Origin: Stegostoma tigrinum
Taxonomy: Eukaryota
Assembly (NCBI RefSeq): GCF_030684315.1
Contig: NC_081395.1
Span: 7,489,310-7,553,309, forward strand
DNA: 64,000 nucleotides
Reading direction: 5' to 3'
The notes beneath the pieces are model-generated. The model ran no database searches. It was not told the DNA's origin and worked only from the letters and a program-made list of their open reading frames with translations. How positions within the stretch are numbered: position 1 is the stretch's first letter; each line of letters starts with the position of its first letter. Of the stretch, positions 12,959-63,260 are shown one piece after another. The position numbers were made by a program, and so were the translations under genes.

Positions 12959-13289
12959 CTTTGACGATGTCGCACTCCACCACCCGGCCGTACTCCTCGA
13001 ACTTGGCCCTCAGCTCCTGGTTGCTGCAGCCAGCCGCCAGGTTACCGACGTAGACCTTGGTGACGGCGGCAGGCCGGGGCCGGGACTCGGCCACGTTGAG
13101 CTTCTGGCCGTGCAGCTCGTACTGGTTGAGGGCGGCGATGGCCTGGTTCGCCTCCTCGGCGCTGTCCATGTGCACGAAGCCGTAATGCCGGATGATGTCG
13201 CACTCCCGCACCGTGCCGTAGTAGCCGAACAGCGTCTTCAGCTCGTCCACGGTCCCTTCGCTCGGGATATTCCCCACAAAGATCTTCAT
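12959..13289 (-). CDS. RBM14: RBM14/RBM4-family protein, coding exon 1 (RRM1 and first half of RRM2)
   Basis: ATG at 13289 gives MKIFVGNIP...YGFVHM...SRPRP..TKVYVGNL...ELRAKFEEYGRVVECDIVK; donor AAAG|GTAACC, phase 1. The three exons total 873 nt (290 aa plus stop). Confidence 0.92.
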
Positions 13290-15695: not shown

Positions 15696-15913
15696 TGAGG
15701 ACAGTGTTTTTGCCATGAGATGTGATTGCACAGAATTTGATACGGCTTCAGTTGAGACCCACCCAGTGATTTACAGAGGTTCATTACGAGATTTTCATAA
15801 ACACAAACAGAGATCAAGGATCAAATCTTGGCTTGGTACCATACACCCGCTTCCCAGAAATTAATTAACCCATCTTTCTCTCAGGTTGCACCTGGACTGT
15901 AAAGGACGAAATA

Positions 15914-17062
15914 ATGAAAGCCATTAACAAGATGGATCTTGCAGATTTTAAAGGAAGAAAGGTTAGGGTTCAGCCATCCAAGGGAATTGCCAAAACACAA
16001 TCTGTCAGTGGTGCAGTGGAAAATTTTCGTCCCCTCGGAAGATCGAGCCACCAGGAAGCAGAATGCTCCAGGGCACCGTGTGAGTCCCCAGATAGGTACG
16101 GCCAGCAAAAGTCACTCTACACTTGTTCCCACCCAGACGGTGTTACCCAGCAATCTGTTGATGATTACGAGCACTTTGCACCCGGCCCTCACCTTGGGTC
16201 CCAAGCTGCCCGCCGTGCGCGCTGGGGCTATCGGCTCCAGTATTCTGTCCCTCCGAGCCTCTCCAAGAACAAATCCCTGTACCACCGCTTCCGCCTGCCT
16301 CCGCTCCCTGCACCAAAGCTGGAAAACAGAAAACCCACAAAGAGGAAAATACCTCGGGAGGATAAGCCTGCCTTCGTCAAAAGGTCCTGTCCCTCGCTTG
16401 TCAATATCACTACTCAAGGACAGAGCCTCCTGATGAAACAGTTAAACACTTCTGAGATGGGAGAGAGTTCCCAATCTAATCTGTTAAGTGCTCACATCCT
16501 GGCAGGGAGGCCCCAATCCGGTATGTTAAACACCTCCACTTTTGGAGAGAATACCCAATTTGGCCTGTTAAGTACCCACGACTTAGGAATGCAAGGCCAA
16601 TCCAGGTTAAACACCTCTGTCCTTAAAGAGAGTGCTCGAACTGGCCTGTTGGACACCCCCACTCTGGAAGAAAGTGCTCAATCTAACTTGTTAAAGACCC
16701 TCATCTTGGGAATGCATGCCCGATCCAATCAGTCAGACACCCCTATTGCAGATCAGGGTCAACGAGCCAGCCTTTTGAGTTCCCCGTCTGCAAGAAAGAG
16801 TGCTCAATCTGGCTTGTTAAGGGAGCCCTTACTGAGAAAGAGTGCTGAATTTGGCCTGCTAAATACTCCAAGCCTCAGAAAGAGTGCTAAATCTGGCTTG
16901 CTAAATACTCCCACCCTCGGAAAGAATGCTAAATCTGGCCTGCTAAATGCTCCTGCATCCAGCAGAACTGCGCAATCTGGCCTGTTAAACGCTCCCCACC
17001 ATTCTGAGAGAGATAGTCTGATTGGACCTGTTAAATACCCCTGCCCTGGGGAACAGTGCTGA
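15914..17062 (+). CDS. Diverged inverted paralog of RBM14-like exon 2 (half-RRM, degenerate knuckle, 14-aa tandem repeats), 382 aa; may be a pseudogene
   Basis: Acceptor ctttctctcag| at 15884; MKAINKMDLADFKGRKVRVQPS ~ MQAIASLDNQEFNGNKLRVQLS; GRSSHQEAEC ~ GRQGHQARDC; SLYHRFRLPPLPAPK ~ TLYERTRLSPLTVPK. Confidence 0.65.
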   Translation: MKAINKMDLADFKGRKVRVQPSKGIAKTQSVSGAVENFRPLGRSSHQEAECSRAPCESPDRYGQQKSLYTCSHPDGVTQQSVDDYEHFAPGPHLGSQAARRARWGYRLQYSVPPSLSKNKSLYHRFRLPPLPAPKLENRKPTKRKIPREDKPAFVKRSCPSLVNITTQGQSLLMKQLNTSEMGESSQSNLLSAHILAGRPQSGMLNTSTFGENTQFGLLSTHDLGMQGQSRLNTSVLKESARTGLLDTPTLEESAQSNLLKTLILGMHARSNQSDTPIADQGQRASLLSSPSARKSAQSGLLREPLLRKSAEFGLLNTPSLRKSAKSGLLNTPTLGKNAKSGLLNAPASSRTAQSGLLNAPHHSERDSLIGPVKYPCPGEQC

Positions 17063-34607: not shown

Positions 34608-36353
34608 TCAGCTACAAAGAGAGTTTGGATGGACTGTTATTGTTTTCCATGGAGCAGAGGAGACTGGTGGAGGATGACATGTGACTGAGATGTTTAAAAA
34701 TAAGAGGAGAATAGACAGGGTAGGCAGAGAGGAACGACCCCCTTTGATGGAGGGATCAAGGACCATCGATTTAAGCTAAAGGGCAGGAGGTTTTGAGGGG
34801 AATGTGAGGGAAAGTGTATTCACTCAAAGGATGGTGGCAATCTAAAACACAACTTGAGACAGGAACATGGAGGCAGCTCTAAGATTACAAAGAGATCTTG
34901 ATCAATTGGGTCATTGGGCTGAGGGGTGGCAGATGGGGTTTTAATTGAATAAATGAGAGGTATTGCAGTTTGGCAAAACAAACAAATTTAATGTTGGGGC
35001 CGTGGGTAGTGTTGTAGAACAGAGAGACCTAGGGGTTCAGGATACATAATTCTTAGAAATTTGCATCACCGGTAGGGAGAGTTCAGAAGACATTTAGCAA
35101 GCTTGCCTTCGTTGCTCAGACCTTTGAGTATAGGAGTTGGAACATCATCAGTTATTGGCTGGATATGTTGGGACTTCCTTCGCTGAAGCCAAAGAAGTTG
35201 AGGGGGTGAACTTAGAGGTCTATAAAATCATGGGGGGTGGGGGGGACAGATAAAGGTGAATAACAAAGGTCTTTTCTGTAGGGTTGAGAAGTTCAAAATT
35301 AGGGAGGATATTTTTAAGATGAGAAGAGAAAGTTTTAAAAAGGGGGCAACTTTTTTTTACATACAGAGTAGTTCATATGCGGAATGAACTTCTAGAGGAA
35401 GTGTAGGTACCGTCACAAATGTTCAAAAGATATTTGGAATAAGTATGCAAATAGGTTTGGAGGGATATGGACCAGGAGCAGGCAGGAGGGACTAGTTTAG
35501 TTTGAATATATGGTCAGCATGGAGTAGAATCATAGAGATTTAGAGAATGGAAAAAGACACTTCACCCAATTTGTCCATGTCGAACATGTTTCCTAAATTA
35601 ATCTAGTCCCATTTGTCAGCATTTGGCCCATATCCCTCTAGACCCTTCCAATGCATATATCCATCCAGATGCCTTTTACATGTTGTAATTTACCAGTCTC
35701 CACCACTTCCTCTGGCAGCTCATTCCATATACGCACCATCCTCTGCATGAAAAAGTTGCCTCTTAGCTCCTTTTTAGATCTTTCCCCTCTCACCTTAAAC
35801 TTATGACCCTCTAGTTTTGGACTATTCACCCCGTCCATGATCCTCATGATTTCATAAACTTCTACAAAATCAGCCCTCAGCCTCCGACGCTCCAGAGAAA
35901 AAAGCCCTGTGAAAAAAGCTCCACACTGCGCTATCCCAGCTACTCAGCCTCTCCCTGTATCCCCAACCCTGGCAACATCCTTGTAAATCTTTTCTGAGCC
36001 CTTTCAAGTCTCACAACATCCTCCCTGCAGCAGGGAGACCAGAATTGAAGGCAGGATTCCAAAAGTGGCCTTAACCAATGTCCTGGACAGCCGCAACATG
36101 ACCCTCCCAGCCCTCCTACTCTATGCACTGACCAATAAAGGACAAGACTGAGTTGGGATCCAAGGGTCTGTTTCCATACTGAATGATTCTGGACACCTTT
36201 GCAAGACCAAGGCATTCAGGGCTTGGGATCAAAGTGGTTGGTTTTGACCAGCACGGGGCTCGATGGGCCAAAGGGTCTGTCCCAGTACTCCACTACTTTT
36301 TGCTGATGGGTGGCACGGGAAGAGAAGGGAAGAGGAGTGCTGTCTTGGCTTAC

Positions 36354-36602
36354 CATCTCCTTCCGTAACAACGCCAGGGCCGCGTCTAGATTGGCCGGCT
36401 TGTTCCTTAGTAAGTTCTCGGTGGCCAGGCGGGGCCGGCTCAGCTCGTCCTGGATCATGGTCTTCTTGGCGTACAGCCTCTCCACGTCCCTCCACGACCC
36501 CCCGCTGGAATTGAGGATACCGCTCAGACCCTTGGGCAACGGTGGGAGCCCCTCGATGCCAGAGACTAGGCTCCCGGAGGGCTCGTCCTGCACCCCGTTC
36601 AT
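36354..36602 (-). CDS. FAM89B: FAM89 family protein (FAM89B/LRAP25-like), exon 1
   Basis: MNG...GLPPLPKGLSGILNSSGGSWRDVERLY...IQDEL...NLDAALALLRKEM; donor ATG|GTAAGC. The position just downstream of ZNRD2 favours FAM89B over FAM89A. Confidence 0.88.
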
Positions 36603-38539
36603 ACCCTCTGTTCCCTGCTCTGGTCTGCCTAGCTCATGCAGAGCACGGCTGTCTCAGTCAAAGTTTCCTCTCTCTCTCTCCCACTCCCTCCTCCAGGAAA
36701 CGCTACAACTAATGAAATTGTTAAAAAGTGCAACTTGGAACCAGTTTTGCAAACACTCTCTCTGTCTCTTTGCTTTAAAAAATAAGCTTTCCTTTCTAAT
36801 TTTAAAAGCTAAACCTCTCTCTTTCTCTTACAGGCGCGCACACTACAAATCCTCCTCCCTGGGATTTCCTGTTTAAAAAGATCCGGTTTCTGTGCAGATT
36901 CTATTCTTTGGCTTACCACCACGCCCTGAAAGCGTGAGGGCATTGCTGTTTCCTTTGCAAACTTGTTGATTTTGTTTCCGACGTTTCTCTCCGCCCCCCT
37001 CCAAAAAAATAAACAACGCCTCTCCAAATCCCAAACCAAAAATCTCAAACTATTTCCGCACTTGAGTTTTGTTTTCTCTCCCCCCCCCCCGCCGCGAGGA
37101 TTAAAAAAAGGTTGTTTTTAAATTCCACTGGTAACTGATCTCGTTTTTACCTGTGGAGATTTCTGCAGGATATTTACTGTCCTCTCACTGTGTCTTTTAA
37201 AGGTTGCTAATTTCTGAGAGTAATTACTGTCCTCTCACACGCCCTCTCTCTCTTTTCTGATTTTTCTGGAGAAGGGTCCAGACCCGAAAGGTCAGCCTTC
37301 CTGCTCCTCTGATGCTGCTTGGCCTGCTGTCTTCATCCAGCTCTACACCTTGTTATCTCTCCCTCTCTCTTTCACAGCGTTTATGTTTCTGAGGCAGTGC
37401 AAATGAAGACATCATGCACAGCAAGATCCCACAAAGCAGGGGATAAATAGTCATGGAGTCACATAGAGATGTGCACAGCTCAGAAACAGACCCTTCGGTC
37501 CAGCACGCCCATCCCGACCAGATATCCAAAATAAACCTAATCCCATTTGCCAGCATTTGGCCCATATCCCTCTAAATCCTTCCTTTTCTCTTAAATGCTG
37601 TAACTGTACCAGCCTCCACCACTTCCTCTGGCAGCTCATTCCATACACGCACCGCCCTCTGTGTGAGAAACGTACCCCTTAGGTCCTTTGTAAATCTTTC
37701 CCTTCTCACCCTAACCTATGCCCCTCTAACTTTGGACTCCCCTACCCTGGGGAAAAGACCTTGTCTATCCATGTCCCTCATGTTTTTATAAACCTCTATA
37801 AGGTCACCCCCCTCAGCCTCTGACACTCCAGGGACAACAGCACCAGTCTATTTGATTGGGAGAAATCAGACATTAACATTTCAGGTCCAGTGAACCTTTT
37901 CTCACAACTCAGAAAGGGTCACCAGACTTGAAATGTTAACTCTGATTTCTCTCCACAGATGTTGCTGGACCTGTTGAGCTTTTCCAGCAATTTCTGCTGT
38001 TTCTGATTCCCAGCATCCGCAGTTCTTTATGTTCATTGGAAATTAGAAGAATGGGGGGGTGATCTTATAGAAACATATGAAGTTTTGAAGGGATTAGATA
38101 AAATAGAAGCAGGGAGGTTGTTTCCACTAGCTGGTGAAACTAGATCCACAGGGCATAGCCTGAAAATAAGGGGGAGCAGATTTAGGACTGAGTTGAGGTG
38201 GAACTTCTTCACCTAAAGGGTTGTGAATCTGGAGAATTGCCTGCCCAGTAAAGCACTTGAAGCACTCATTGAATGTTTTAAGGCAAAAGAAGATGGGAGT
38301 TTTGATGAGTAAAGGAGCTAAGGGTTACAGTGAGCGGGTGGGTAAGTGGAGCTGAGTCCACAAAACAATCAGCCATGATTTTATTGAATGCAGAGCAGGC
38401 GCCAGATGGCCTGCTCCTGCTTCTAGCTCTTATGGTCTTGTGTAGCGAGGAGTGGAGTTGAAGGAACACAGCGGGCCAGGCAGCATCAGAAGAGCAGGGA
38501 AGCTGACGTTTCGGGTCGGGACCCTTCTTCAGAAACCCT

Positions 38540-41816: not shown

Positions 41817-41822
41817 TTTATT
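41817..41822 (-). terminator. Candidate polyadenylation signal of ZNRD2
   Basis: AATAAA on the minus strand ~1.5 kb past the stop, preceded by a U-rich tract. Confidence 0.45.
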
Positions 41823-42169
41823 AACACAAACCAAAATACAAAAAAAAACGGCATTCCTGTGGAAGTGTAGGAAAGAGGGGACTGTGTCTGGTGGCCGTGT
41901 ACAGTCGAATCAATCTCAGCACTGCTACCTCTGGGCTCAGTGCGCCATGGAACAGCGATTGGATCATAAGCTATCTCCACACAATAGTGCAACATCCAAC
42001 GGAGATGCAATCTCAGTTGGGAATCCTCATGGTACTGGCAATGGAGCTGAGCAACAATCCTCGCAATCAGTTTGACTGAAATCATTTTAAAATGTATCCA
42101 ACCTCCACGGTTCCATCTCTCAACTCCGTGGAACGATTCAGCTGGAAGCTGGGGTCAAAAGTTCCAGCA

Positions 42170-42680
42170 CTGACCTATTCCATTAGGCAAACACTCCCAG
42201 AGCAGGTAGAGCAGCGGGCTGGATAGAGAGTAAAGCCTCTCCACTCTTAAACTGCAAGGAAAGCTCTCTATACAGCGTCCCCATCAAACACTCCCAGGAG
42301 ATGTACATCATGAGGTTAGACAGGACAGGGATAGCATGGGGTTAGATACAGAGTAAAGCTCTCTCTACACTGTCCCTCACCCCTATCAAACATTCCCAGG
42401 ACAGGGACAGCACAGTGTTAGATAGAGAGTAAAGCTCCCTCTACACCGTCCCTGTCAAACACTCCCAGGACAGGGAAATCATGAAGTTAGATACAGAGTA
42501 AAGTTCTCTCTACACTGGTCTCCCTGCTATCCCCCCACCCCCCCACCCCATCAAACACTCCCAGGGCAGAGGCAGCACAGTGTTAGATACAGAGTAAAGC
42601 TCCCTCTATACTATCCCCCCCCCATCAAACACTCCCAGGGCAGGGACAGCACAGGGTTAGATACAGAGTAAAGCTCCCTA
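42170..42680 (+). repeat. ~70-bp tandem repeat (about 6-7 units) in the putative ZNRD2 3' UTR
   Basis: ccccatcaaacactcccaggacagggacagcac..gttagatacagagtaaagctccctcta repeated. Confidence 0.85.
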
Positions 42681-43303
42681 GTCAGTGAGGATTTTCATCC
42701 TTTTCTGTGTGAGCAGATGTTGAGCTCAAGCCTCAAAGGTTAACAGTATCTTATCGACCGTGGAGCCCACACCACCAGCCCCCCCAACCCCAGAACAACT
42801 GCACAAACTCTCAAAACCTCTATTCAATACCAGACAGGATTTCCTGTAACAATCCAGGACCATGGGAGGAATGCCAACCCTCCAGGAAATGTCCTACAGT
42901 TTCCAAAACACTAAAGTTTAAACGGTCTTCAAAATGAATAATTGCGAGGGGAGGTTGGGGGGAGGAGGTGGCTAACAGTTGTGTTGAGTAGTTGCAGGGA
43001 TGTTGGACAAGGGAGACGGTGAAAGGCTGTCAAACTGGGTTGGGAGATTGTCCAAATGATTATGCCTTCAGCATGAGTGAAGCTGAACCTTTATACCCCG
43101 AATTTCACTGCTATTTGCTGCATGCCACGTCTAGAGGCATCACTTGCTCTCCAAAAGTGCAAAGTCAAATTTGGCTGGAGGTCATAACAGGACATGTCTA
43201 TGGCTAGCACCCCCTGGAGTCCTAGTGTGCTACAGCACTGGCAGATTCAGGGCTCAGACAGTCGCGGCATCGACAGAGTGCCCCCTCCTGTCCCAGAGTG
43301 CAA

Positions 43304-43671
43304 CTATACCAGCCGCTTCAAGCTGTGCAGCGCGTCAGCACAGTTCCTGATCAGAAGGCAGAGCTGAGAGCTGTACTCCACAGAGGAGGCCCGCTCCAGC
43401 TCGCCGCAGGCCCACGCCAGCCTCTGCAGGACCGCCCGCTCGGCCTCCTGGCGGGCACTGGCACGAGGGGTGCCCAGGCAAGCCGGCCCTGGGGGCCTGT
43501 CACCTTCGGCCCGGGGAGGGGCTGGCTCGGGGGGCTCCAGACAAGGGGCGGGCAAAGACCTGGCTTCGAGTGAGAGTTCCGGAGTGGAGCGGGAGCAGAG
43601 TGCCTCCTCCTGGCCATTGAGGACACGTTGTCGCTCTCGAACTTGAGACAGGGCTGCCTGTGGGTTCAAAG
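43304..43671 (-). CDS. ZNRD2: ZNRD2/SSSCA1 exon 4
   Basis: Acceptor CTCGCAG|; ALNPQAALSQVRERQ...AVLQRLAWACGELERASSVEYSSQLCLLIRNCADALHSLKRLV*. Confidence 0.88.
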
Positions 43672-45018: not shown

Positions 45019-45396
45019 GGATGTGAGTTTGCTCGCTGAGCCAGAAGGTTAGTTTTCAGACGCTTCATCACCATTCTAGGTAACATCATCAGTGAGCCTC
45101 CGACGAAGCGCTGGTGTTATGTCCCACTTTCTATTTATCTGGTTAGGTTTCCTTGGGTTGGTGATGTCATTTCCTGCATTGGTGATGTCATTTCCTGTGT
45201 TGGTGAGGAAATGACATCACCAACCCAAGGAAACCTAACCAGATAAATAGAAAGCGGGACATAACACCAGCGCTTCGTCGGAGGCTCACTGATGATGTTA
45301 CCTAGAATGGTGACGAAACATCTGAAAACTAACCTTCCAGCTCAGCGAGCAAACCACATCCAGAACCTCAACCTGAGCTACAAATCTTCTCAAAAC
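45019..45396. mobile_element. Near-perfect palindromic element (family C) with a hammerhead core in each arm and a 15-bp TSD
   Basis: ~160-bp inverted arms; ttgcattgtctctct at 45004-45018 and 45397-45411; CTGATGA-T-GTTACC-tagaat-GGTGAC-GAAA-CA-TC at 45289-45322. Confidence 0.8.
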
Positions 45397-46547: not shown

Positions 46548-46632
46548 CTGGGTTATCTTTGTCCACGTCAGAATCCAGCTCCTGACAGGCAACGCAGTAG
46601 TTCTTCTGCTTCTTGTCTTGAAGGAGGACAGT
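46548..46632 (-). CDS. ZNRD2: ZNRD2/SSSCA1 exon 3 (second CxxC of the zinc ribbon)
   Basis: CCCTGACAG| TVLLQDKKQKNYCVACQELDSDVDKDNP G|GTGAAA; 85 nt, phases 0/1 fit the neighbouring exons. Confidence 0.9.
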
Positions 46633-48765: not shown

Positions 48766-48917
48766 TCCACACTCCTGACAACTGTCTGCCAGCATCTTGT
48801 AGCCTTTCAATAAGTAATCCCCCATCAGCTTGGTGATCTTGTCCTGGTGCTCCCGACGGGCCTGAATCACCTTCATCTCCGCCTCAGATGGGGGCGTCCA
48901 CGTAAACTCCTCATCAC
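48766..48917 (-). CDS. ZNRD2: ZNRD2/SSSCA1 exon 2
   Basis: TGCAG| (G)DEEFTWTPPSEAEMKVIQARREHQDKITKLMGDYLLKGYKMLADSCQECG |GTGAGT. Confidence 0.92.
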
Positions 48918-49615
48918 CTGCACACAAACAGCCAACACCAACATTACAAGCCCATGCCATCTTCCTGCTCCAATGCGTCAGGAAGATGCAGCACCCCATC
49001 CTGACGCTTCGTGGAAGGAGTGTTTACCCTATCGCACTCACCCCTCATCTCTGTCTTCCACCTGCAATCTCCCTCCGTTGTCCTTCACCTCCCCAGTGGC
49101 TCCATTCTAATTCTCCCTCTCATGCCCATTCTCTTTCTCTCTTTTTCTCATTATTACCTGTCTCAAGCCCCCAACTTCCTTTTCTCCTCCCCGTCCCGTG
49201 CCCATTACACTCGGTTTCTCTTCTTCCCTATTAGTCTCTCCTTAGCCCATAACCATCTCTCTCTAGCCCACAAGTGTCTTTCCCACTCTCTCTCTCCCAC
49301 CCAGTCTCTCTCCCACCCCTTACACATTACTCTCCCACTTACCCAGATCCTCTCTCTTGCCTTCTTTTGCCCATTGCCTCTCTTTCTCTCTCTCCCCCCC
49401 TCCCCCAACCTGGCCCATGACATTCTCTCCCACATCCTTTCTCTCTCTATCCTCCCTTGCCTCAGTCTCTCTTTCACCAAACAAACTATAATTGAAGAAC
49501 TGCTAAAGCTGGAAATCTATTACAAAAACGGAAAATAACTGGAGAAGGGTCCCTGGCCCTAAAACACTAAGATGCTGCCTGACCTGCTGAGTTTCTCCAG
49601 AAATTTCTGTATTTG

Positions 49616-52600
49616 TCTCTCTCCTCTCTCTTTATTCGCATCCCCCTCTCCTCTCTCTTTATTCTCATCCCCCTCTCCTCTCTCTTTATTCTCATCCCTC
49701 TCTGCTCTCTCTTTATTCTCATCCCTCTCTCCTCTCTCTTTATTCTCATCCCTCTCTCCTCTCTCTTTATTCTCATCCCCGTCTCCTATCCCTCTCTCCT
49801 CTCTCTTTATTCTCATCCCCCTCTCCTATCCCTCCCTCCTCTCTCTTTATTCTCATCCCTCCCTCCTCTCTTTATTCTCATCCCTCTCTCCTCTCTCTTT
49901 ATTCTCATCCCTCTCTCCTCTCTCTTTATTCTCATCCCTCTCTCCTCTCTCTTTATTCTCATCCAAGTCTCCTATCCCTCTCTCCTCTCTCTTTATTCTC
50001 ATCCCCTTCTCCTATCCCTCTCTCCTCTCTCTTTATTCTCATCCCTCTCTCCAGTCCCTCTCTCCTCTCTCTTTATTCTCATCGCTCTCTCCTATCCCTC
50101 TCTCCTCTCTTTATTCTCATCCCTCTCTCCTCTTTATTCTCATCCCTCTCTCCTCTCTCTTTATTCTCATCCCCGTCTCCTATCCCTCTCTCCTCTCTTA
50201 TTCTCATCCCCCTCTCCTCTCTCTTTATTCTCATCCCTCTCTCCTATCCATCTCCCCTCTCACTTTATTCTCATACCTCTCTCCTATCCCTCTCCCCTCT
50301 CTCTTTATTCTCATCACTCTCTCCTATCCCTCTCTCCTCTCTCTTTATTCTCATCCCTCTCTACTATCCCTCTCTCCTCTCTCTTTATTCTCATCCCTCT
50401 CTCCTATCCCTCTCTCCTCTCTTTATTCTCATCCCTCTCTCCTATCCCTCCCTCCTCTCTCTTTATTCTCATCCCTCTCTCCTCTCTCTTTATTCTCATC
50501 CCTCTCTCTTTATTCTCATCCCTCTCTCATCTCTCTTTATTCTCATCCCTCTCTCCTATCCCTCTCTCCTCTCTTTATTCTCATCCCTCTCTCCTCTCTC
50601 TTTATTCTCATCCCTCTCTCCTCTCTCTTTATTCTCATCCCCGTCTCCTATCCCTCTCTCCTCTCTCTTTATTCTCATCCCTCTCTCCTCTCTCTTTATT
50701 CTCATCCCTCTCTCCTATCTCTCTCTCCTCTCTCTTTATTCTCATCCCTCTCTCCTATCCCTCTCTCCTCTCTCTTTATTCTCATACCTCTCTCCTCTCT
50801 CTATATTCTCATCCCTCTCTCCTCTCTCTTTATTCTCATCCCTCTCTCCTATCCCTCCCTCCTCTCTCTTTATTCTCATCCCTCTCTCCTATCCCTCCCT
50901 CCTCTCTCTTTATTCTCATCCCTCTCTCCTATCCCTCCCTCCTCTCTCTTTATTCTCATCCCTCTCCTCTCTCTTTATTCTCATCCCGCTCTCCTCTCTC
51001 TTTATTCTCATCCCCGTCTCCTATCCCTCTCTCCTCTCTCTTTATTCTCATCCCCCTCTCCTATCCCTCCCTCCTCTCTCTTTATTCTCATCCCTCTCTC
51101 CTATCCCTCCCTCCTCTCTCTTTATTCTCATCCCTCTCTCCTCTCTCTTTATTCTCATCCCGCTCTCCTCTCTCTTTATTCTCATCCCCGTCTCCTATCC
51201 CTCTCTCCTCTCTCTTTATTCTCATCCCCCTCTCCTATCCCTCTCTCCTCTCTCTTTATTCTCATCCCTCTCTCCTATCCCTCTCTCCTCTCTCTTTATT
51301 CTCATCCCTCTCTCCTATCCCTCTCTCCTCTCTCTTTATTCTCATCTCTCTCTCCTATCCCTCTCTCCTCTCTCTTTATTCTCATCCCTCTCCTCTCTTT
51401 ATTCTCATCCCTCTCTCCTATCCCTCTCTCCTCTCTCTTTATTCTCATCCCTCTCTCCTATCCCTCCCTCCTCTCTCTTTATTCTCATCCCTCTCTCCTA
51501 TCCCTCCCTCCTCTCTCTTTATTCTCATCCCTCTCTCCTCTCTCTTTATTCTCATCCCTCTCTCTTTATTCTCATCCCTCTCTCCTCTCTCTTTATTCTC
51601 ATCCCTCTCTCTTTATTCTCATCCCTCTCTCCTCTCTCTTTATTCTCATCCCTCTCTCCTCTCTCTTTATTCTCATCCCACTCTCCTCTCTCTTTATTCT
51701 CATCCCACTCTCCTCTCTCTTTATTCTCATCCCTCTCTCCTCTCTCTTTATTCTCATCCCCGTCTCCTATCCCTCTCTCCTCTCTCTTTATTCTCATCCC
51801 CGTCTCCTATCCCTCTCTTCTCTCTTTATTCTCATCCCCGTCTCCTATCCCTCTCTCCTCTCTCTTTATTCTCATCCCCTTCTCCTATCCCTCTCTCCTC
51901 TCTCTTTATTCTCATCCCTCTCTCCTATCCCTCTCTCCTCTCTCTTTATTCTCATCCCTCTCTCCTATCCCTCTCTCCTCTCTCTTTATTCTCATCCCTC
52001 TGTCCTATCCCTCTCTCCTCTCTTTATTCTCATCCCTCTCTCCTATCCCTCTCTCCTCTCTCCTTATTCTCATCACTCTCTCCTCTCTCCTTATTCTCAT
52101 CCCTCTCTCCTATCCCTCTCTCCTCTCTCCTTATTCTCATCCCTCTCTCCTATCCCTCTCTCCTCTCTCTTTATTCTCATCCCTCTCTCCTCTCTCTTTA
52201 TTCTCATCCCCCTCTCCCATCCCCCCTCCTCTCTCTTTATTCTCATCACCCTCTCCCATCCCCCTCTCCTCTCTCTTTATTCTCATCCCCCTCTCCTCTC
52301 TCTTTATTCTCATCCCCCTCTCCCATCCCCCTCTCCTCTCTCTTTATTCTCATCCCCCTCTCCTCTCTCTTTATTCTCATCCCCCTCTCCTCTCTCTTTA
52401 TTCTCATCCCCCTCTCCCATCCCCCTCTCCTCTCTCTTTACTCTCATCCCCCTCTCCTCTCTCTTTACTCTCATCCCCCTCTCCCATCCCCCTCTCCCAT
52501 CCCCCTCTCCTCTCTCTTTACTCTCATCCCCCTCTCCCATCCCCCTCTCCTCTCTCTTTACTCTCATCCCCCGCTCCCATCCCCCTCTCCTCTCTCTTTA

Positions 52601-55600
52601 CTCTCATCCCCCTCTCCTCTCTCTTTACTCTCATCCCCCGCTCCCATCCCCCTCTCCTCTCTCTTTATTCTCATCCCCCTCTCCTCTCTCTTTATTCTCA
52701 TCCCCCTCTCCCATCCCCCTCTCCTCTCTCTTTATTCTCATCCCCCTCTCCTCTCTCTTTATTCTCATCCCCCTCTCCCATCCCCCTCTCCTCTCTCTTT
52801 ATTCTCATCCCCCTCTCCTCTCTCTTTATTCTCATCCCCCTCTCCCATCCCCCTCTCCTCTCTCTTTATTCTCATCCCCCTCTCCCATCCCCCTCTCCTC
52901 TCTCTTTATTCTCATCCCCCTCTCCTCTCTCTTTATTCTCATCCCCCTCTCCCATCCCCCTCTCCTCTCTCTTTATTCTCATCCCCCTCTCCTCTCTCTT
53001 TATTCTCATCCCCCTCTCCCATCCCCCTCTCCTCTCTCTTTATTCTCATCCCCCTCTCCTCTCTCTTTATTCTCATCCCCCTCTCCCATCCCCCTCTCCT
53101 CTCTCTTTATTCTCATCCCCCTCTCCTCTCTCTTTATTCTCATCCCCCTCTCCTCTCTCTTTATTCTCATCCCCCTCTCCCATCCCCCTCTCCTCTCTCT
53201 TTATTCTCATCCCCCTCTCCTCTCTCTTCATTCTCATCCCCCTCTCCTCTCTCTTTATTCTCATCCCCCTCTCCCATCCCCCACTCCTCTCTCTTTATTC
53301 TCATCCCCCTCTCCTCTCTCTTTATTCTCATCCCTCTCTCCTATCCCTCTCTCCTCTCTCTTTATTCTCATCCCTCTCTCCTATCCCTCTCTCCTCTCTC
53401 TTTATTCTCATCCCTCTGTCCTATCCCTCTCTCCTCTCTTTATTCTCATCCCTCTCTCCTATCCCTCTCTCCTCTCTCCTTATTCTCATCACTCTCTCCT
53501 CTCTCCTTATTCTCATCCCTCTCTCCTATCCCTCTCTCCTCTCTCCTTATTCTCATCCCTCTCTCCTATCCCTCTCTCCTCTCTCTTTATTCTCATCCCT
53601 CTCTCCTCTCTCTTTATTCTCATCCCCCTCTCCCATCCCCCTCTCCTCTCTCTTTATTCTCATCACCCTCTCCCATCCCCCTCTCCTCTCTCTTTATTCT
53701 CATCCCCCTCTCCTCTCTCTTTATTCTCATCCCCCTCTCCCATCCCCCTCTCCTCTCTCTTTATTCTCATCCCCCTCTCCTCTCTCTTTATTCTCATCCC
53801 CCTCTCCTCTCTCTTTATTCTCATCCCCCTCTCCCATCCCCCTCTCCTCTCTCTTTACTCTCATCCCCCTCTCCTCTCTCTTTACTCTCATCCCCCTCTC
53901 CCATCCCCCTCTCCTCTCTCTTTACTCTCATCCCCCTCTCCCATCCCCCTCTCCTCTCTCTTTACTCTCATCCCCCGCTCCCATCCCCCTCTCCTCTCTC
54001 TTACTCTCATCCCCCTCTCCTCTCTCTTTACTCTCATCCCCCGCTCCCATCCCCCTCTCCTCTCTCTTTATTCTCATCCCCCTCTCCTCTCTCTTTATTC
54101 TCATCCCCCTCTCCCATCCCCCTCTCCTCTCTCTTTATTCTCATCCCCCTCTCCTCTCTCTTTATTCTCATCCCCCTCTCCCATCCCCCTCTCCTCTCTC
54201 TTTATTCTCATCCCCCTCTCCTCTCTCTTTATTCTCATCCCCCTCTCCTCTCTCTTTATTCTCATCCCCCTCTCCTCTCTCTTTATTCTCATCCCCCTCT
54301 CCTATCCCCCTCTCCTCTCTCTTTATTCTCATCCCCCTCTCCTCTCTCTTTATTCTCATCCCCCTCTCCCATCCCCCTCTCCTCTCTCTTTATTCTCATC
54401 CCCCTCTCCTCTCTCTTTATTCTCATCCCCCTCTCCCATCCCCCTCTCCTCTCTCTTTATTCTCATCCCCCTCTCCCATCCCCCTCTCCTCTCTCTTTAT
54501 TCTCATCCCCCTCTCCTCTCTCTTTATTCTCATCCCCCTCTCCCATCCCCCTCTCCTCTCTCTTTATTCTCATCCCCCTCTCCTCTCTCTTTATTCTCAT
54601 CCCCCTCTCCCATCCCCCACTCCTCTCTCTTTATTCTCATCCCCCTCTCCTCTCTCTTTATTCTCATCCCCCTCTCCCATCCCCCTCTCCTCTCTCTTTA
54701 TTCTCATCCCCCTCTCCCATCCCCCTCTCCTCTCTCTTTATTCTCATCCCCCTCTCCTCTCTCTTTATTCTCATCCCCCTCTCCCATCCCCCACTCCTCT
54801 CTCTTTATTCTCATCCCCCTCTCCTCTCTCTTTATTCTCATCCCCCTCTCCTCTCTCTTTATTCTCATCCCCCTCTCCTCTCTCTTTATTCTCATCCCCC
54901 TCTCCCATCCCCCTCTCCTCTCTCTTTATTCTCATCCCCCTCTCCCATCCCCCTCTCCTCTCTCTTTATTCTCATCCCCCTCTCCTCTCTCTTTATTCTC
55001 ATCCCCCTCTCCCATCCCCCTCTCCTCTCTCTTTATTCTCATCCCCCTCTCCTCTCTCTTTATTCTCATCCCCCTCTCCCATCCCCCTCTCCTCTCTCTT
55101 TATTCTCATCCCCCTCTCCTCTCTCTTTATTCTCATCCCCCTCTCCCATCCCCCTCTCCTCTCTCTTGATTCTCATCCCCCTCTCCCATCCCCCTCTCTT
55201 TATTCTCATCCCCCTCTCCCATCCCCCTCTCCCCTCTCTTTATTCTCATCCCCCTCTCCATCTCTTTATTCTCATCCCCCTCTCCCATCCCCCTCTCCCC
55301 TCTCTTTATTCTCATCCCCCTCTCCCCTCTCTTTATTCTCATCCCCCTCTCCCATCTCTTTATTCTCATCCCCCTCTCCATCTCTTTATTCTCATCCCCC
55401 TCTCCTCTCTCTTTATTCTCATCCCCCTCTCCCATCCCCCCTCTCCTCTCTCTTTATTCTCATCCCCCTCTCCCATCCCCCTCTCCTCTCTCTTGATTCT
55501 CATCCCCCTCTCCCATCCCCCTCTCCCCTCTCTTTATTCTCATCCCCCTCTCCCATCTCTTTATTCTCATCCCCCTCTCCCCTCTCTTTATTCTCATCCC

Positions 55601-58600
55601 CCTCTCTTTATTCTCATCCCCCTCTCCCATCTCTTTATTCTCATCCCCCTCTCCTCTCTCTTTATTCTCATCCCCCTCTCCCATCCCCCCTCTCCTCTCT
55701 CTTTATTCTCATCCCCCTCTCCCATCCCCCTCTCCTCTCTCTTTATTCTCATCCCCCTCTCCTCTCTCTTTATTCTCATCCCCCTCTCCCATCCCCCTCT
55801 CCTCTCTCTTTATTCTCATCCCCCTCTCCCATCCCCCTCTCCTCTCTCTTTATTCTCATCCCCCTCTCCCATCCCCCTCTCCTCTCTCTTTATTCTCATC
55901 CCCCTCTCCCATCCCCCTCTCCTCTCTCTTTATTCTCATCCCCCTCTCCCATCCCCCTCTCCTCTCTCTTTATTCTCATCCCCCTCTCCTCTCTCTTTAT
56001 TCTCATCCCCCTCTCCTCTCTCTTTATTCTCATCCCCCTCTCCCATCCCCCTCTCCTCTCTCTTTATTCTCATCCCCCTCTCCCATCCCCCTCTCCTCTC
56101 TCTTTATTCTCATCCCCCTCACCCATCCCCCTCTCCTCTCTCTTTATTCTCATCCCCCTCTCCCATCCCCCTCTCCTCTCTCTTTATTCTCATCCCCCTC
56201 TCCCATCCCCCTCTCCTCTCTCTTTATTCTCATCCCCCTCTCCCATCCCCCTCTCCTCTCTCTTTATTCTCATCCCCCTCTCCTCTCTCTTTATTCTCAT
56301 CCCCCTCTCCCATCCCCCTCTCCTCTCTCTTTATTCTCATCCCCCTCTCCTCTCTCTTTATTCTCATCCCCCTCTCCCATCCCCCTCTCCTCTCTCTTTA
56401 TTCTCATCCCCCTCTCCCATCCCCCTCTGCTCTCTCTTTATTCTCATCCCCCTCTCCTCTCTCTTTATTCTCATCCCCCTCTCCCATCCCCCTCTCCTCT
56501 CTCTTTATTCTCATCCCCCTCTCCTCTCTCTTTATTCTCATCCCCCTCTCCCATCCCCCTCTCCTCTCTCTTTATTCTCATCCCCCTCTCCCATCCCCCT
56601 CTCCTCTCTCTTTATTCTCATCCCCCTCTCCCATCCCCCTCTCCTCTCTCTTTATTCTCATCCCCCTCTCCTCTCTCTTTATTCTCATCCCCCTCTCCCA
56701 TCCCCCTCTCCTCTCTCTTTATTCTCATCCCCCTCTCCCCTCTCTTTATTCTCATCCCCCTCTCCCATCCCCCTCTCCTCTCTCTTTATTCTCATCCCCC
56801 TCTCCCATCCCCCTCTCCTCTCTCTTTATTCTCATCCCCCTCTCCCATCCCCCTCTCCTCTCTCTTTATTCTCATCCCCCTCTCCTCTCTCTTTATTCTC
56901 ATCCCCCTCTCCCATCCCCCACTCCTCTCTCTTTATTCTCATCCCCCTCTCCTCTCTCTTTATTCTCATCCCCCTCTCCTCTCTCTTTATTCTCATCCCC
57001 CTCTCCCATCCCCCTCTCCTCTCTCTTTATTCTCATCCCCCTCTCCTCTCTCTTTATTCTCATCCCCCTCTCCCATCCCCCTCTCCTCTCTCTTGATTCT
57101 CATCCCCCTCTCCCATCCCCCTCTCCCCTCTCTTTATTCTCATCCCCCTCTCCCATCTCTTTATTCTCATCCCCCTCTCCCATCCCCCTCTCCCCTCTCT
57201 TTATTCTCATCCCCCTCTCCCATCTCTTTATTCTCATCCCCCTCTCCCATCTCTTTATTCTCATCCCCCTCTCCTCTCTCTTTATTCTCATCCCCCTCTC
57301 CCATCCCCCCTCTCCTCTCTCTTTATTCTCATCCCCCTCTCCTCTCTCTTGATTCTCATCCCCCTCTCCCATCCCCCTCTCCCCTCTCTTTATTCTCATC
57401 CCCCTCTCCCATCTCTTTATTCTCATCCCCCTCTCCCCTCTCTTTATTCTCATCCCCCTCTCTTTATTCTCATCCCCCTCTCCCATCTCTTTATTCTCAT
57501 CCCCCTCTCCTCTCTCTTTATTCTCATCCCCCTCTCCCATCCCCCCTCTCCTCTCTCTTTATTCTCATCCCCCTCTCCCATCCCCCTCTCCTCTCTCTTT
57601 ATTCTCATCCCCCTCTCCCATCCCCCTCTCCTCTCTCTTTATTCTCATCCCCCTCTCCCATCCCCCTCTCCTCTCTCTTTATTCTCATCCCCCTCTCCTC
57701 TCTCTTTATTCTCATCCCCCTCTCCCATCCCCCTCTCCTCTCTCTTTATTCTCATCCCCCTCTCCCATCCCCCTCTCCTCTCTCTTTATTCTCATCCCCC
57801 TCTCCCATCCCCCTCTCCTCTCTCTTTATTCTCATCCCCCTCTCCTCTCTCTTTATTCTCATCCCCCTCTCCCATCCCCCTCTCCTCTCTCTTTATTCTC
57901 ATCCCCCTCTCCTCTCTCTTTATTCTCATCCCCCTCTCCTATCCCCCTCTCCTCTCTCTTTATTCTCATCCCCCTCTCCTCTCTCTTTATTCTCATCCCC
58001 CTCTCCTCTCTCTTTATTCTCATCCCCCTCTCCTATCCCCCTCTCCTCTCTCTTTATTCTCATCCCCCTCTCCTCTCTCTTTATTCTCATCCCCCTCTCC
58101 TATCCCCCTCTCCTCTCTCTTTATTCTCATCCCCCTCTCCTCTCTCTTTATTCTCATCCCCCTCTCCTCTCTCTTTATTCTCATCCCCCTCTCCCATCCC
58201 CCTCTCCTCTCTCTTTATTCTCATCCCCCTCTCCCCTCTCTTTATTCTCATCCCCCTCTCCCATCCCCCTCTCCCCTCTCTTTATTCTCATCCCCATCTC
58301 CCATCCCCCTCTCCTCTCTCTTTATTCTCATCCCCCTCTCCCATCCCCCTCTCCTCTCTCTTTATTCTCATCCCCCTCTCCCATCCCCCTCTCCTCTCTC
58401 TTTATTCTCATCTCCCTCTCCCATCCCCCTCTCCTCTCTCTTTATTCTCATCCCCCTCTCCTATCCCCCTCTCCTCTCTCTTTATTCTCATCCCCCTCTC
58501 CTATCCCCCTCTCCTCTCTCTTTATTCTCATCCCCCTCTCCTCTCTCTTTAGTCTCATCCCCCTCTCCTATCCCCCTCTCCTCTCTCTTTATTCTCATCC

Positions 58601-61600
58601 CCCTCTCCTATCCCCCTCTCCTCTCTCTTTATTCTCATCCCCCTCTCCTGTCCCCCTCTCCTCTCTCTTTATTCTCATCCCCCTCTCCTGTCCCCCTCTC
58701 CTCTCTCTTTATTCTCATCCCCCTCTCCTGTCCCCCTCTCCTCTCTCTTTATTCTCCTGTCCCCCTCTCCTCTCTCTTTATTCTCATCCCCCTCTCCTCT
58801 CTCTTTATTCTCATCCCCCTCTCCTCTCTCTTTATTCTCATCCCCCTCTCCTATCCCCCTCTCCTCTCTCTTTATTCTCATCCCCCTCTCCTATCCCCCT
58901 CTCCTCTCTCTTTATTCTCATCCCCCTCTCCTGTCCCCCTCTCCTCTCTCTTTATTCTCATCCCCCTCTCCTGTCCCCCTCTCCTCTCTCTTTATTCTCA
59001 TCCCCCTCTCCTGTCCCCCTCTCCTCTCTCTTTATTCTCATCCCCCTCTCCTGTCCCCCTCTCCTCTCTCTTTATTCTCATCCCCCTCTCCTCTCTCTTT
59101 ATTCTCATCCCCCTCTCCTGTCCCCCTCTCCTCTCTCTTTATTCTCATCCCCCTCTCCTCTCTCTTTATTCTCATCCCCCTCTCCTCTCTCTTTATTCTC
59201 ATCCCCCTCTCCTGTCCCCCTCTCCTCTCTCTTTATTCTCATCCCCCTCTCCTCTCTCTTTATTCTCATCCCCCTCTCCTCTCTCTTTATTCTCATCCCC
59301 CTCTCCTGTCCCCCTCTCCTCTCTCTTTATTCTCATCCCCCTCTCCTCTCTCTTTATTCTCATCCCCCTCTCCTCTCTCTTTATTCTCATCCCCCTCTCC
59401 TGTCCCCCTCTCCTCTCTCTTTATTCTCGTCCCCCTCTCCTGTCCCCCTCTCCTCTCTCTTTATTCTCGTCCCCCTCTCCTGTCCCCCTCTCCTCTCTCT
59501 TTATTCTCGTCCCCCTCTCCTGTCCCCCTCTCCTCTCTCTTTATTCTCGTCCCCCTCTCCTGTCCCCCTCTCCTCTCTCTTTATTCTCGTCCCCCTCTCC
59601 TCTCTCTTTATTCTCGTCCCCCTCTCCTCTCTCTTTATTCTCGTCCCCCTCTCCTGTCCCCCTCTCCTCTCTCTTTATTCTCGTCCCCCTCTCCTCTCTC
59701 TTTATTCTCGTCCCCCTCTCCTGTCCCCCTCTCCTCTCTCTTTATTCTCGTCCCCCTCTCCTCTCTCTTTATTCTCGTCCCCCTCTCCTGTCCCCCTCTC
59801 CTCTCTCTTTATTCTCGTCCCCCTCTCCTCTCTCTTTATTCTCGTCCCCCTCTCCTGTCCCCCTCTCCTCTCTCTTTATTCTCGTCCCCCTCTCCTCTCT
59901 CTTTATTCTCGTCCCCCTCTCCTGTCCCCCTCTCCTCTCTCTTTATTCTCGTCCCCCTCTCCTCTCTCTTTATTCTCATCCCCCTCTCCTGTCCCCCTCT
60001 CCTCTCTCTTTATTCTCATCCCCCTCTCCTGTCCCCCTCTCCTCTCTCTTTATTCTCATCCCCCTCTCCTGTCCCCCTCTCCTCTCTCTTTATTCTCATC
60101 CCCCTCTCCTGTCCCCCTCTCCTCTCTCTTTATTCTCATCCCCCTCTCCTGTCCCCCTCTCCTCTCTCTTTATTCTCATCCCCCTCTCCTGTCCCCCTCT
60201 CCTCTCTCTTTATTCTCATCCCCCTCTCCTGTCCCCCTCTCCTCTCTCTTTATTCTCATCCCCCTCTCCTGTCCCCCTCTCCTCTCTCTTTATTCTCATC
60301 CCCCTCTCCTGTCCCCCTCTCCTCTCTCTTTATTCTCATCCCCCTCTCCTGTCCCCCTCTCCTCTCTCTTTATTCTCATCCCCCTCTCCTGTCCCCCTCT
60401 CCTCTCTCTTTATTCTCATCCCCCTCTCCTGTCCCCCTCTCCTCTCTCTTTATTCTCATCCCCCTCTCCTGTCCCCCTCTCCTCTCTCTTTATTCTCATC
60501 CCCCTCTCCTGTCCCCCTCTCCTCTCTCTTTATTCTCATCCCCCTCTCCTGTCCCCCTCTCCTCTCTCTTTATTCTCATCCCCCTCTCCTGTCCCCCTCT
60601 CCTCTCTCTTTATTCTCATCCCCCTCTCCTGTCCCCCTCTCCTCTCTCTTTATTCTCATCCCCCTCTCCTGTCCCCCTCTCCTCTCTCTTTATTCTCATC
60701 CCCCTCTCCTGTCCCCCTCTCCTCTCTCTTTATTCTCATCCCCCTCTCCTGTCCCCCTCTCCTCTCTCTTTATTCTCATCCCCCTCTCCTGTCCCCCTCT
60801 CCTCTCTCTTTATTCTCATCCCCCTCTCCTGTCCCCCTCTCCTCTCTCTTTATTCTCATCCCCCTCTCCTGTCCCCCTCTCCTCTCTCTTTATTCTCATC
60901 CCCCTCTCCTGTCCCCCTCTCCTCTCTCTTTATTCTCATCCCCCTCTCCTGTCCCCCTCTCCTCTCTCTTTATTCTCATCCCCCTCTCCTGTCCCCCTCT
61001 CCTCTCTCTTTATTCTCATCCCCCTCTCCTCTCTCTTTATTCTCTTCCCCCTCTCCTCTCTCTTTATTCTCATCCCCCTCTCCTCTCTCTTTATTCTCAT
61101 CCCCCTCTCTTATCCCCCTCTCCTCTCTCTTTATTCTCATCCCCCTCTCCTATCCCCCTCTCCTCTCTCTTTATTCTCATCCCCCTCTCCTATCCCCCTC
61201 TCCTCTCTCTTTATTCTCATCCCTCTCTCCTATCCCTCTCTCCGCTCTCTTTATTCTCATCCCTCTCTCCTATCCCCCTCTCCTCTCTCTTTATTCTCAT
61301 CCCTCTCTCCTATCCCCCTCTCCTCTCTCTTTATTCTCATCCCTCTCTCCTATCCCTCTCTCCTCTCTCTTTATTCTCATCCCTCTCTCCTATCCCTCTC
61401 TCCTCTCTCTTTATTCTCATCCCTCTCTCCTATCCCTCTCTCCTCTCTCTTTATTCTCATCCCTCTCTCCTATCCCTCTCTCCTCTCTCTTTATTCTCAT
61501 CCCCCTCTCCTATCCCTCTCTCCTCTCTCTTTATTCTCATCCCCCTCTCCTATCCCTCTCTCCTCTCTCTTTATTCTCATCCCTCTCTCCTTATTCTCAT

Positions 61601-61793
61601 CCCTCTCTCCTATCCCTCTCCTCTCTCTTTATTCTCATCCCTCTCTCCTATCCCTCTCTCCTCTCTGTTTATTCTCATCCCCCTCTCTCCTCTCTCTTTA
61701 TTCTCATCCCTCTCTCCTATTCCTATCCCTCTCCTCTCTCTTTATTCTCATCCCTCTCTTCTTTCTCTTTATTCTCATCCCTCTCTCCCTCCC
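49616..61793. repeat. ~12.2-kb polypyrimidine/polypurine minisatellite (27-nt and 40-nt units)
   Basis: 27-mer cctctctctttattctcatccccctct, with or without a 13-nt module (cctgtccccctct, cccatccccctct or cctatccctctct); 26 perfect 40-mers at 59961-61000. Confidence 0.97.
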
Positions 61794-61806
61794 CAGGGCC
61801 CATTAC

Positions 61807-61822
61807 CACTGTTTAAGGCCAT
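61807..61822 (-). CDS. ZNRD2: ZNRD2/SSSCA1 exon 1 (MALNS-G)
   Basis: ATG GCC TTA AAC AGT G|GTAATG matches the MALN start recalled for vertebrate SSSCA1; phase 1 joins exon 2; the four exons total 621 nt (206 aa plus stop). Confidence 0.8.
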
Positions 61823-62330
61823 GCTGCTACTTCAGGCACCCTCAGCGTTGTCGGAAGTGACGTCTTCTTGAGGCTTGGCTTCAACTTAACCGCTAAAATG
61901 GGAGAATAGACTAGTCGGACACCCCTCTCCTCCTGCGGGATGGTGAGAATGGGATCGTCCGGGCGGGAGGCGGAGTCTGTGCGATCAAGGGGCGGGACCA
62001 GAGTTCGTAAGGGGGCGGGGTTAGAGTCGGGGCAGGAGCGGAGTCCGGACTCCGGGCGCTGACCTTCGGCGAGGGGGAGGGGGCCAGAATCATTGGTGTT
62101 CGGGGCGGGGTCGGATCCGCGAGGGGGCGGGATCAGACTCGGGCGTTGTCAAGCTCGGGGCGGGGCTCCTTCGTTTAGGGGGCGTGGTTAGTGCGGTAGG
62201 GAGGCGGGGATAACGGCGAAGGGCGGGGTCACAACGGGTAATGGGGGCGGGTGTCTTCTTGGTGCCGTTACCAGGGAGATGCCGAGGCCTAGTTGATCGT
62301 TTGAGGCCTGCCGTCAGGCCGCTCAGATGC
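61823..62330. promoter_or_regulatory. CpG-island bidirectional promoter ZNRD2/SRR
   Basis: ETS/CRE-type CGGAAGTGACGT at 61852-61863; many GGGGCGGGG GC boxes at 61960-62255; possible non-coding SRR exon 1 donor ATG|GTGAGA at ~61943. Confidence 0.7.
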
Positions 62331-63092
62331 TCTCTTTCTGACCCCGACCCTTTTCCAGGGCAAATACAATTGTGCTATTGCAACGGGACCTATGGTGCAG
62401 CGCATATGACTGCACCTCCACGGTCATTGTCAAAAAAAGAGGCAGCTCTTCGGGGCACCGTTAGCTCAGTTTCTCCCCCCTTCTGTACTCCCAATAGTTC
62501 TTTTAATCCCATATCCTCATCCCTATCCCCAGAGCCCTGATAGAAATAGGTCATTCTGCCCATCTTGTCTGTTCCTATCATCTCTGAAAGAGATATCTAG
62601 TCTCATTCCCGCTTTCCACCAGCTCTTGGTCTGTAGACCCTGTTGCTACAAGTGCACATCCAATTTTTTTCTCAGGAGCAGTAAGGATATTACTACCCTT
62701 TCAGGAATTGTGTTCCAGACCCCTTTGAGTGAAAACAGATACCCATCACATGCACCAAGCCCCTGCGCAGCAAAGGTTTCTGTTGCTTACTTTAAATCTA
62801 TGCCTCACTTGTCATTTGACTTGTTCTGTCAAGGAAAGTTGGATTATCTAGAACCTTCAATTCTGTACATCTTGATTAGATCTTGTGTGTTCCGAAGAAA
62901 TCAGACTCAACTATCTGATCTTGTCTCCCAGTTACAATATGCCATTCTGGTAAAGATCTTGCTCTGCATCCTTCCTTATTGCGATCACATCCTTCCTATA
63001 ATGTGGCAATTGCCATTGCATTGTACTATCTGTGGTCTTAACTGCTGCTTTATACCATTCCTGTTGAAATTCTTTGCTAGTTGTAAGTAGCC

Positions 63093-63260
63093 ATGGAGTC
63101 TCAGTACTGTGTCTCCCTGGCGAGTGTACAGAAGGCTCACATGGTCATCTGTGATCTTGTCCACCGGACGCCAGTCCTCACCAACTCCACCCTGGACAAG
63201 CGAGCTGATAGGAAGATCTTTCTCAAGTGTGAACTTTTCCAAAAAACTGGATCATTCAAG
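63093..63260 (+). CDS. SRR: Serine racemase, first coding exon (gene continues beyond the window)
   Basis: gccATGg Kozak; MESQYCVSLASVQKAH...HRTPVLTNSTLD...IFLKCELFQKTGSFK includes the PLP-binding Lys; donor AAG|GTAAGA; 168 nt. Confidence 0.88.

Follow-up and report, generated by a model that had tools for sequence, protein, structure and literature searches.

A polyadenylation (poly(A)) site is described as being recognised jointly, with CPSF binding AAUAAA, CstF the U/GU-rich downstream element and CFI the motif UGUA (PMC4421977). Of the intronic sites predicted in human genes, 98.5% are given as unused, and G-rich elements appear to be most helpful when they lie 10-25 nt beyond the GU/CU-rich element (PMC10651852). 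Tandem repeats within introns may also be transcribed. In human BEAN1, the locus of spinocerebellar ataxia type 31 (SCA31), expansions of the intronic (TAAAA)n / (TAAAATAGAA)n arrays are reported also in unaffected people, and RNA from the arrays has been detected (PMC9968654). Here we describe an intronic array in the zebra shark, Stegostoma tigrinum. The window analysed is a 64,000-nt stretch of contig NC_081395.1 (positions 7,489,310 to 7,553,309; assembly GCF_030684315.1), and its ZNRD2 gene, on the minus strand, has a first intron filled almost completely by a purine-rich minisatellite with AATAAA in nearly every unit. The hexamers are likely (probability about 0.65) to be silent passengers of the expanded repeat, because the partner elements of a poly(A) site are missing and neighbouring G-runs would repress cleavage.

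The original prediction, made from the letters of the window, placed intron 1 at 61806-48918 and took about 95% of it to be satellite. The intron is indeed 12,889 nt long, and the minisatellite, at 61788-49617 of the minus strand, covers 12,172 nt or 94.4% of it; the array boundaries are those called by Tandem Repeats Finder (TRF), and lengths are as in the reference assembly. The array begins 18 nt past the exon 1 donor by the TRF call, or at the predicted 13 nt when the G-rich bases in front are counted in. It consists of 349 units arranged head-to-tail and belonging to 75 distinct types, most of them 27 or 40 nt long, and the most common unit, GAGAATAAAGAGAGAGGAGAGGGGGAT, has 71 copies. Hundreds of sense-strand AATAAA motifs in roughly 300-450 units had been expected, with the first at 61773-61768. 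The count is 325, every one on the transcribed strand, and the first lies exactly there, 33 nt from the exon 1 donor. Successive hexamers are spaced by 40 nt in 171 cases and by 27 nt in 115, and their density is about 27 per kb, versus 0.5-0.8 per kb per strand elsewhere in the window. The transcribed strand is 92% purine with a GC skew of 0.97. Neither TGTA nor TTT occurs in the array, and its 28 GT dinucleotides match the donor consensus at 6 of 9 positions at best, which agrees with the predicted lack of obvious U1 sites. What the original prediction overlooked is the purine-rich, G-skewed strand itself and the presence of G-runs on either side of nearly every hexamer. A coding role of the array is ruled out, as the exon 1 frame runs into a stop codon within 11 codons past the donor.

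The sequence context of the hexamers is one argument for their silence. As foreseen, GU- or U-rich downstream elements are practically missing: a U-rich element was found within 60 nt past none of the 325 hexamers, and a GU/CU-rich element past two, both at the distal end, where the interval reaches unique sequence. Upstream, UGUA was found within 40 nt of none of the 325, and the T fraction is 0.07. The dinucleotide CA, which is preferred but not required, occurs 10-30 nt past 51 of the 325. At the likely terminal signal of ZNRD2 (41822-41817), UGUA, a U-rich element and a GU/CU-rich element are all present. Judged by sequence, then, the array sites would fail as canonical intronic poly(A) sites, as they offer AAUAAA only. 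A run of at least three G follows 324 of the 325 hexamers within 30 nt and precedes 319 of them within 15 nt. In models trained on reporters, polyG is presented as a verified suppressor of poly(A) sites, and sites for HNRNPH2/hnRNP H as repressive in the downstream region (10.1101/300061). Splicing is in turn described as being enhanced by G-runs that follow a donor (PMC6344860).

These features suggest the following course of events. A GA-rich seed that held AATAAA by chance would have been amplified in place, as the block and duplication structure of the array implies. The seed was probably of local origin, because the intron outside the array (49480-49042) is also 80% purine. Polymerase starting from the CpG island traverses the array and, at least in the products seen, exon 1 is spliced to exon 2. 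CPSF bound at a hexamer would likely get no CFI or CstF partner, because UGUA and U-rich elements upstream and U/GU-rich elements downstream are absent. Finally, the G-runs just before the hexamer and 12-16 nt after it are predicted, from human data, to bind hnRNP H/F, to repress cleavage and to aid the weak exon 1 donor. Units with AGTAAA, predicted at about 52440-52630, were located at about 52441-52628, and a second block of them lies at about 53858-54031. The replacement of AATAAA by AGTAAA had been proposed as a control in a minigene, but it would be a weak one, because the reporter-trained model presented in 10.1101/300061 places this substitution among the mildest.

Evidence that the array is crossed comes from assembled contigs of six sequencing runs of the same organism (X4-X9); runs X1-X3, from other organisms, were left out. 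The kind of these runs is unrecorded, and they were taken as RNA solely on the grounds that introns with canonical ends are missing from their contigs. Such contigs show the presence of products, neither their ends nor their levels. Exon 4 of ZNRD2 is fully covered in six runs, and introns 2 and 3 are skipped at canonical ends by contigs of 4/4 runs. The exon 1-exon 2 junction, a check that the original prediction had suggested, was found: in X4, X5 and X8 (three of the four runs looked at for exon 1, from two studies), contigs of 1,270-1,312 nt pass directly from exon 1 to exon 2 and leave out the array. A contig of X6 agrees with that of X5 in length and offset (its exon 1 letters are not shown), and the junction is thus shown or implied in four of the six runs; the contig of X9 begins within exon 2 and is uninformative on the junction. 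The array is spliced out of mature ZNRD2 transcripts, and it is no absolute terminator, because contigs of three of four runs join exon 1 to exon 2. Three readings of the hexamers had been offered. The best fit is the reading in which AATAAA that lacks a downstream element is largely inert, given the spliced contigs of exons 1 and 2 from two studies; an attenuator biasing expression toward SRR and a CPSF sponge found no support, the hexamer being conserved to no greater degree than other parts of the unit.

Some further observations on the runs were not used as evidence. No contig leads from exon 1 into the start of the intron in 4/4 runs; rare forms are lost from contigs, and cleavage at the first sites would give a product of less than 200 nt. 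The SRR exon is covered in two of four runs and ZNRD2 exon 1 in three of four, the runs having been found with ZNRD2. Three 57-nt contigs at the array start (depth 7.7-15.7), each with two differing letters, probably derive from commoner units (31-mers present 14-46 times). They suggest less than one unit of depth per copy, although contig depth cannot rank gene parts.

The contig of X7 is of a different kind. It joins exon 2 to 49257-49042 and skips just 124 nt, and the translation of this type of product matches P0121, which is RefSeq isoform X2. The original prediction named a first exon downstream of the array as an outcome contrary to it; this outcome is borne out in part, by a second 5' exon seen there in one run and in a RefSeq isoform, side by side with the exon 1-exon 2 contigs. 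The alternative downstream 5' exon is already known from RefSeq. Its donor (49041) agrees with the consensus at 7 of 9 positions, against 5 of 9 for the exon 1 donor, donor strength being a plain count of matches to the 9-position consensus. One could argue that in some tissues the array is a roadblock for the CpG promoter, and that ZNRD2 is then made from a start downstream of or inside the array, via donor 49041, as isoform X2. The in-frame product, the better donor and the fact that, among the contigs listed, the sole exon 2 contig of X7 joins 49257-49042 and not exon 1 are consistent with this possibility. We nevertheless consider such a bypass improbable. It is seen in one of six runs, and nothing links the use of the alternative exon to the array. 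The segment 49042-49257 could serve as a first exon or as a cassette exon, or could belong to a partly spliced precursor; candidate acceptors are present upstream of it (49517-49486), and an unspliced contig of X7 (49601-49415) spans them. Moreover, alternative 5' ends of ZNRD2 may predate the array, because two lamniform sharks have annotated ZNRD2 X2 isoforms starting in exon 2. A length-tunable, tissue-dependent terminator is a related idea that we find similarly hard to credit. Under low hnRNP H/F or low U1 protection, cleavage supported by G-rich elements at the AAUAAA sites would silence the output of the CpG promoter and cause a switch to the downstream first exon, with a near-identical protein as the outcome. 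If this were true, expansion of the minisatellite would act as a repeat-driven first-exon switch in ZNRD2.

Several points weigh against silent hexamers. First, the spliced contigs speak for presence, not efficiency, and most nascent transcripts could be lost. Second, a weak exon 1 donor (5/9) with the first hexamer 33 nt away combines features that favour human intronic polyadenylation. Used human intronic poly(A) sites are described as tending to sit near weak donors, and first introns as the most sensitive to U1 loss in the account of 10.1101/2025.08.19.671063. Third, about 20% of human poly(A) sites are listed as having no U/GU-rich element (PMC4421977), and G-rich elements are reported to be able to support cleavage via hnRNP F/H or CF II. 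Fourth, the donor employed in X7 lies beyond the array and is not that of exon 1, a possible bypass. Fifth, the array is unusual even locally: in a sample of 1,264,000 bases of the same 16.8-Mb contig (154,198 of them N, leaving about 1.11 Mb usable), AATAAA was found in none of the 59 other arrays of at least 500 nt. Finally, all the mechanistic rules applied here derive from human data.

A partial cost in transcripts is also conceivable, because the 325 sites lie in series. Half of the transcripts survive if per-site use is below 0.21%, and 1% survive if it is below 1.4%; a per-site use of 0.1% leaves 72%, whereas 0.3% leaves 38% and 1% leaves 4%. Unselected, tolerated attenuation, with a length-dependent loss of ZNRD2 transcripts, may accordingly arise from weak cleavage summed over the sites or from R-loop or G-quadruplex stalling like that at FXN. 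For this account speak the 38% that 0.3% use would leave, the weak donor so close to the first site, and the composition of the strand: in addition to its purine content and GC skew, the mean G4Hunter score is 1.22, there are 434 runs of at least four G, and 100-152 motifs of the R-loop-initiation type are predicted in silico. Premature termination at the purine repeats of FXN intron 1 is a described precedent (PMC9558844). We regard this alternative as possible but unlikely. Full-length spliced contigs are available from two studies. The purine tract is interrupted, unlike pure GAA, with a longest purine run of 26 nt and, in a 400-nt sample, mirror arms of at most 8 nt, and canonical short-loop G-quadruplex motifs number just eight. 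Strongly skewed arrays (purine fraction ≤0.25 or ≥0.75) are common on the contig, where they make up 6 of the 27 other sampled arrays of at least 1 kb.

An exact 26-mer of the unit has 241 matches in the 3.2-Gb genome and an exact two-unit pattern has 253, and all of them fall in the window (exact patterns only). A dispersed satellite family is ruled out, since all exact unit matches are confined to a single locus. Because the unit is confined in this way, the 325 AATAAA copies represent a single chance event that was then amplified, and they are not independent. Shuffled units contain AATAAA in 2.4% (27 nt) and 1.6% (40 nt) of 200,000 trials, and in 82 unit consensus rows of long arrays from the contig sample the rate of AATAAA averages 1.0% on either strand. 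Arrays are plentiful in this sample: 60 are at least 500 nt long, 28 at least 1 kb and 4 at least 10 kb (the ZNRD2 array included), and tandem repeats make up 27% of its non-N bases. The small chromosomes of the zebra shark are characterised as rich in simple tandem repeats (PMC10620051; 10.1101/2025.06.08.657570). The combination of AATAAA with a long array is uncommon, yet a rate of 1-2% would account for it. A genome-wide scan for AATAAA arrays, which covered periods 20 and 27, found four AATAAA at period 27 in four other loci, one of them with a similar GA-rich unit, and five AATAAA at period 20 in one locus. A short, apparently independent minisatellite whose GA-rich 27-nt unit includes AATAAA is located at G000:C14:10269439-10269525.

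Conservation within the unit bears on the question of selection. In the 313 of 349 units with lengths of 27 or 40 nt, 5 types of substitution were counted at the 6 hexamer sites versus 16 at the remaining 21 sites of the unit. The hexamer is not spared relative to the rest, and there is no sign of selection. ZNRD2 and SRR (plus strand) lie head to head around one CpG-rich region, and this arrangement, the very dense hexamers on the sense strand only and the lack of any other exact copy of the unit in the genome could point to a selected regulatory element, either an attenuator tuned in favour of SRR or an RNA that acts as a sponge for CPSF. With the hexamer not preferentially conserved, its chance occurrence in 1.6-2.4% of shuffles and a first coding exon of SRR 1.2 kb from the ZNRD2 5' end, such an element is scarcely plausible. 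Also, no gain for one divergent gene is known to come from early termination of the other, which counts against an attenuator favouring SRR.

A real array whose length was inflated or misassembled is another explanation to be weighed, given that runs of identical units reach about 1 kb (the longest is 26 copies of a 40-mer). This run could be mis-sized in the assembly. On the whole we judge the array to have evolved as it stands, because its 75 unit types form ordered blocks with a duplicated series of diagnostic variants and 1,166 positions begin a unique 31-mer; there are also no N bases in it, and misassembly is very unlikely. The pattern of blocks and variants is that of an evolved minisatellite, and by structure (units of about 10-100 nt, one locus, variant units and internal duplications) the array would belong to the single-locus minisatellites. 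Two ZNRD2 models of the bamboo shark (P0124, P0125) have no 5' exons, a weak hint that the region may assemble poorly in relatives too.

Table 1. Coordinates of the features of the window, numbered from its first nucleotide
Feature	Position	Strand	Basis
Purine-rich single-locus minisatellite, 349 units, 325 sense AATAAA	49617..61788	-	TRF; unit and motif counts; genome match
Two unit blocks with AGTAAA replacing AATAAA (11 copies), within an internal array duplication	52441..54031	-	Unit listing
ZNRD2 exon 1, start codon 61822	61807..61862	-	61862 is the 5'-most contig end; true start possibly further up
ZNRD2 intron 1, GT...AG, 12,889 nt	48918..61806	-	X4, X5 and X8 contigs joining exons 1 and 2
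ZNRD2 alternative 5' exon past the array, donor 49041, in-frame ATG 49048	49042..49257	-	X7 contig and translation
ZNRD2 exon 2	48766..48917	-	Protein match and contigs
ZNRD2 exon 3	46548..46632	-	Contig joints in 4/4 runs
ZNRD2 exon 4 and 3' untranslated region, stop codon ends 43304	41817..43671	-	Contigs; use of poly(A) signal 41822-41817 inferred
CpG-island-like stretch upstream of ZNRD2	61801..62400	.	GC 0.56-0.69, CpG observed/expected 0.76-1.17, 200-nt windows
SRR (serine racemase) first coding exon	63093..63260	+	E 6.6e-17 against serine racemase in PDB; onward splicing in X5, X9

The original prediction was correct in its gene names as well as in its coordinates and counts. The segments 61822-61807, 48917-48766, 46632-46548 and 43671-43304 together encode 206 residues identical to isoform X1 of zebra shark ZNRD2 (XP_048381071.1), and the SRR exon matches serine racemase with the E value of Table 1. 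Similar N-termini of ZNRD2 (MALNSG, MAVNSG, MAMSGG) are annotated in other sharks and in one ray. The contigs of ZNRD2 have their 5' ends at or above 61862, and the 5'-most contig of the SRR exon begins at 63043. The divergent partner of human SRR is TSR1 and not ZNRD2 as here. Intron 3 of ZNRD2 contains an interspersed element (45158-45280) that has long inverted arms and, internally, a short tandem duplication. Further along the minus strand, an exon at 36229-36630 has no Pfam match on its own; we take it to resemble the start of FAM89B, presumably the neighbour of ZNRD2 in human. Exons at 12570-13325 and 9581-10192 (minus strand) encode RRM domains and a CCHC zinc knuckle according to Pfam, a layout that we assume to be RBM4-like. 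On the plus strand, 15869-17062 is a 397-codon open reading frame with no Pfam match. It encodes some eight degenerate repeats of 14 residues, and its beginning looks like the end of an RRM exon. Elsewhere on the contig, a 14-nt satellite occupies an entire 100-kb sample block (G000:C54:1000001-1100000, L071-L080), and an array of 32-nt units, 55.7 kb in length, lies about 100 kb upstream of the window (G000:C54:7332682-7388350, within L035-L040). In the sampled blocks of G000:C54 (for example, L081-L090), numerous separate arrays of a 53-nt unit, each 0.5-5.4 kb long, occur on both strands and constitute a dispersed minisatellite family.

If the hexamers are silent, the locus would set an extreme natural bound on the effect of bare AAUAAA, with 325 copies in series, almost no U1-like sites and spliced mRNA still made. 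The unit would then be a clean reporter substrate for separating three ideas, the missing CstF element, repression by G-runs and protection at a distance by U1 or splicing. The principle that bare AAUAAA does little has long been known, and the array would gain in importance if allele length altered ZNRD2 output or the choice of first exon. A literature search, which included few subscription papers and no supplements, found no report of this locus, nor of any minisatellite that functions as an array of intronic poly(A) sites. The array is striking in scale and most likely ordinary in kind, and its features are shared in part with several known systems. Like the single-locus GC-rich minisatellites (variable number tandem repeats, VNTRs), it has units of 27-40 nt, one locus and blocks of variant units; it differs from them in filling 94% of a first intron and in carrying AATAAA in nearly every unit. 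With the intronic polyadenylation sites that are restrained by U1 or splicing, as characterised in PMC10651852 and 10.1101/2025.08.19.671063, it has in common a first intron, a weak donor and a hexamer near that donor, whereas UGUA, U-rich and GU-rich elements are missing from it. The BEAN1 arrays are likewise intronic and of kilobase scale, with AAUAAA, by our own reading of the units, on the transcribed strand. They consist of pentanucleotides, reach 2.5-3.8 kb in patients and, as far as that account extends, are not described near a first donor; the ZNRD2 array is 12 kb long, G-rich, and begins 18 nt into intron 1. The (GAA)n tract of FXN intron 1 is similarly a sense-strand purine-rich repeat in a first intron with possible premature termination, on the description in PMC9558844. 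The ZNRD2 tract differs in being broken by pyrimidines about every 5-26 nt and in belonging to a wild-type reference genome, and it has no long uninterrupted homopurine mirror repeat of the sort associated with FXN-type silencing. The fertility genes of the Drosophila Y chromosome reportedly have giant, satellite-filled introns that are megabases long and germline-specific. As in those genes, most of the ZNRD2 intron is a tandem repeat that must be crossed by the polymerase, but here the array is 12 kb long and lies in a short, broadly conserved gene.

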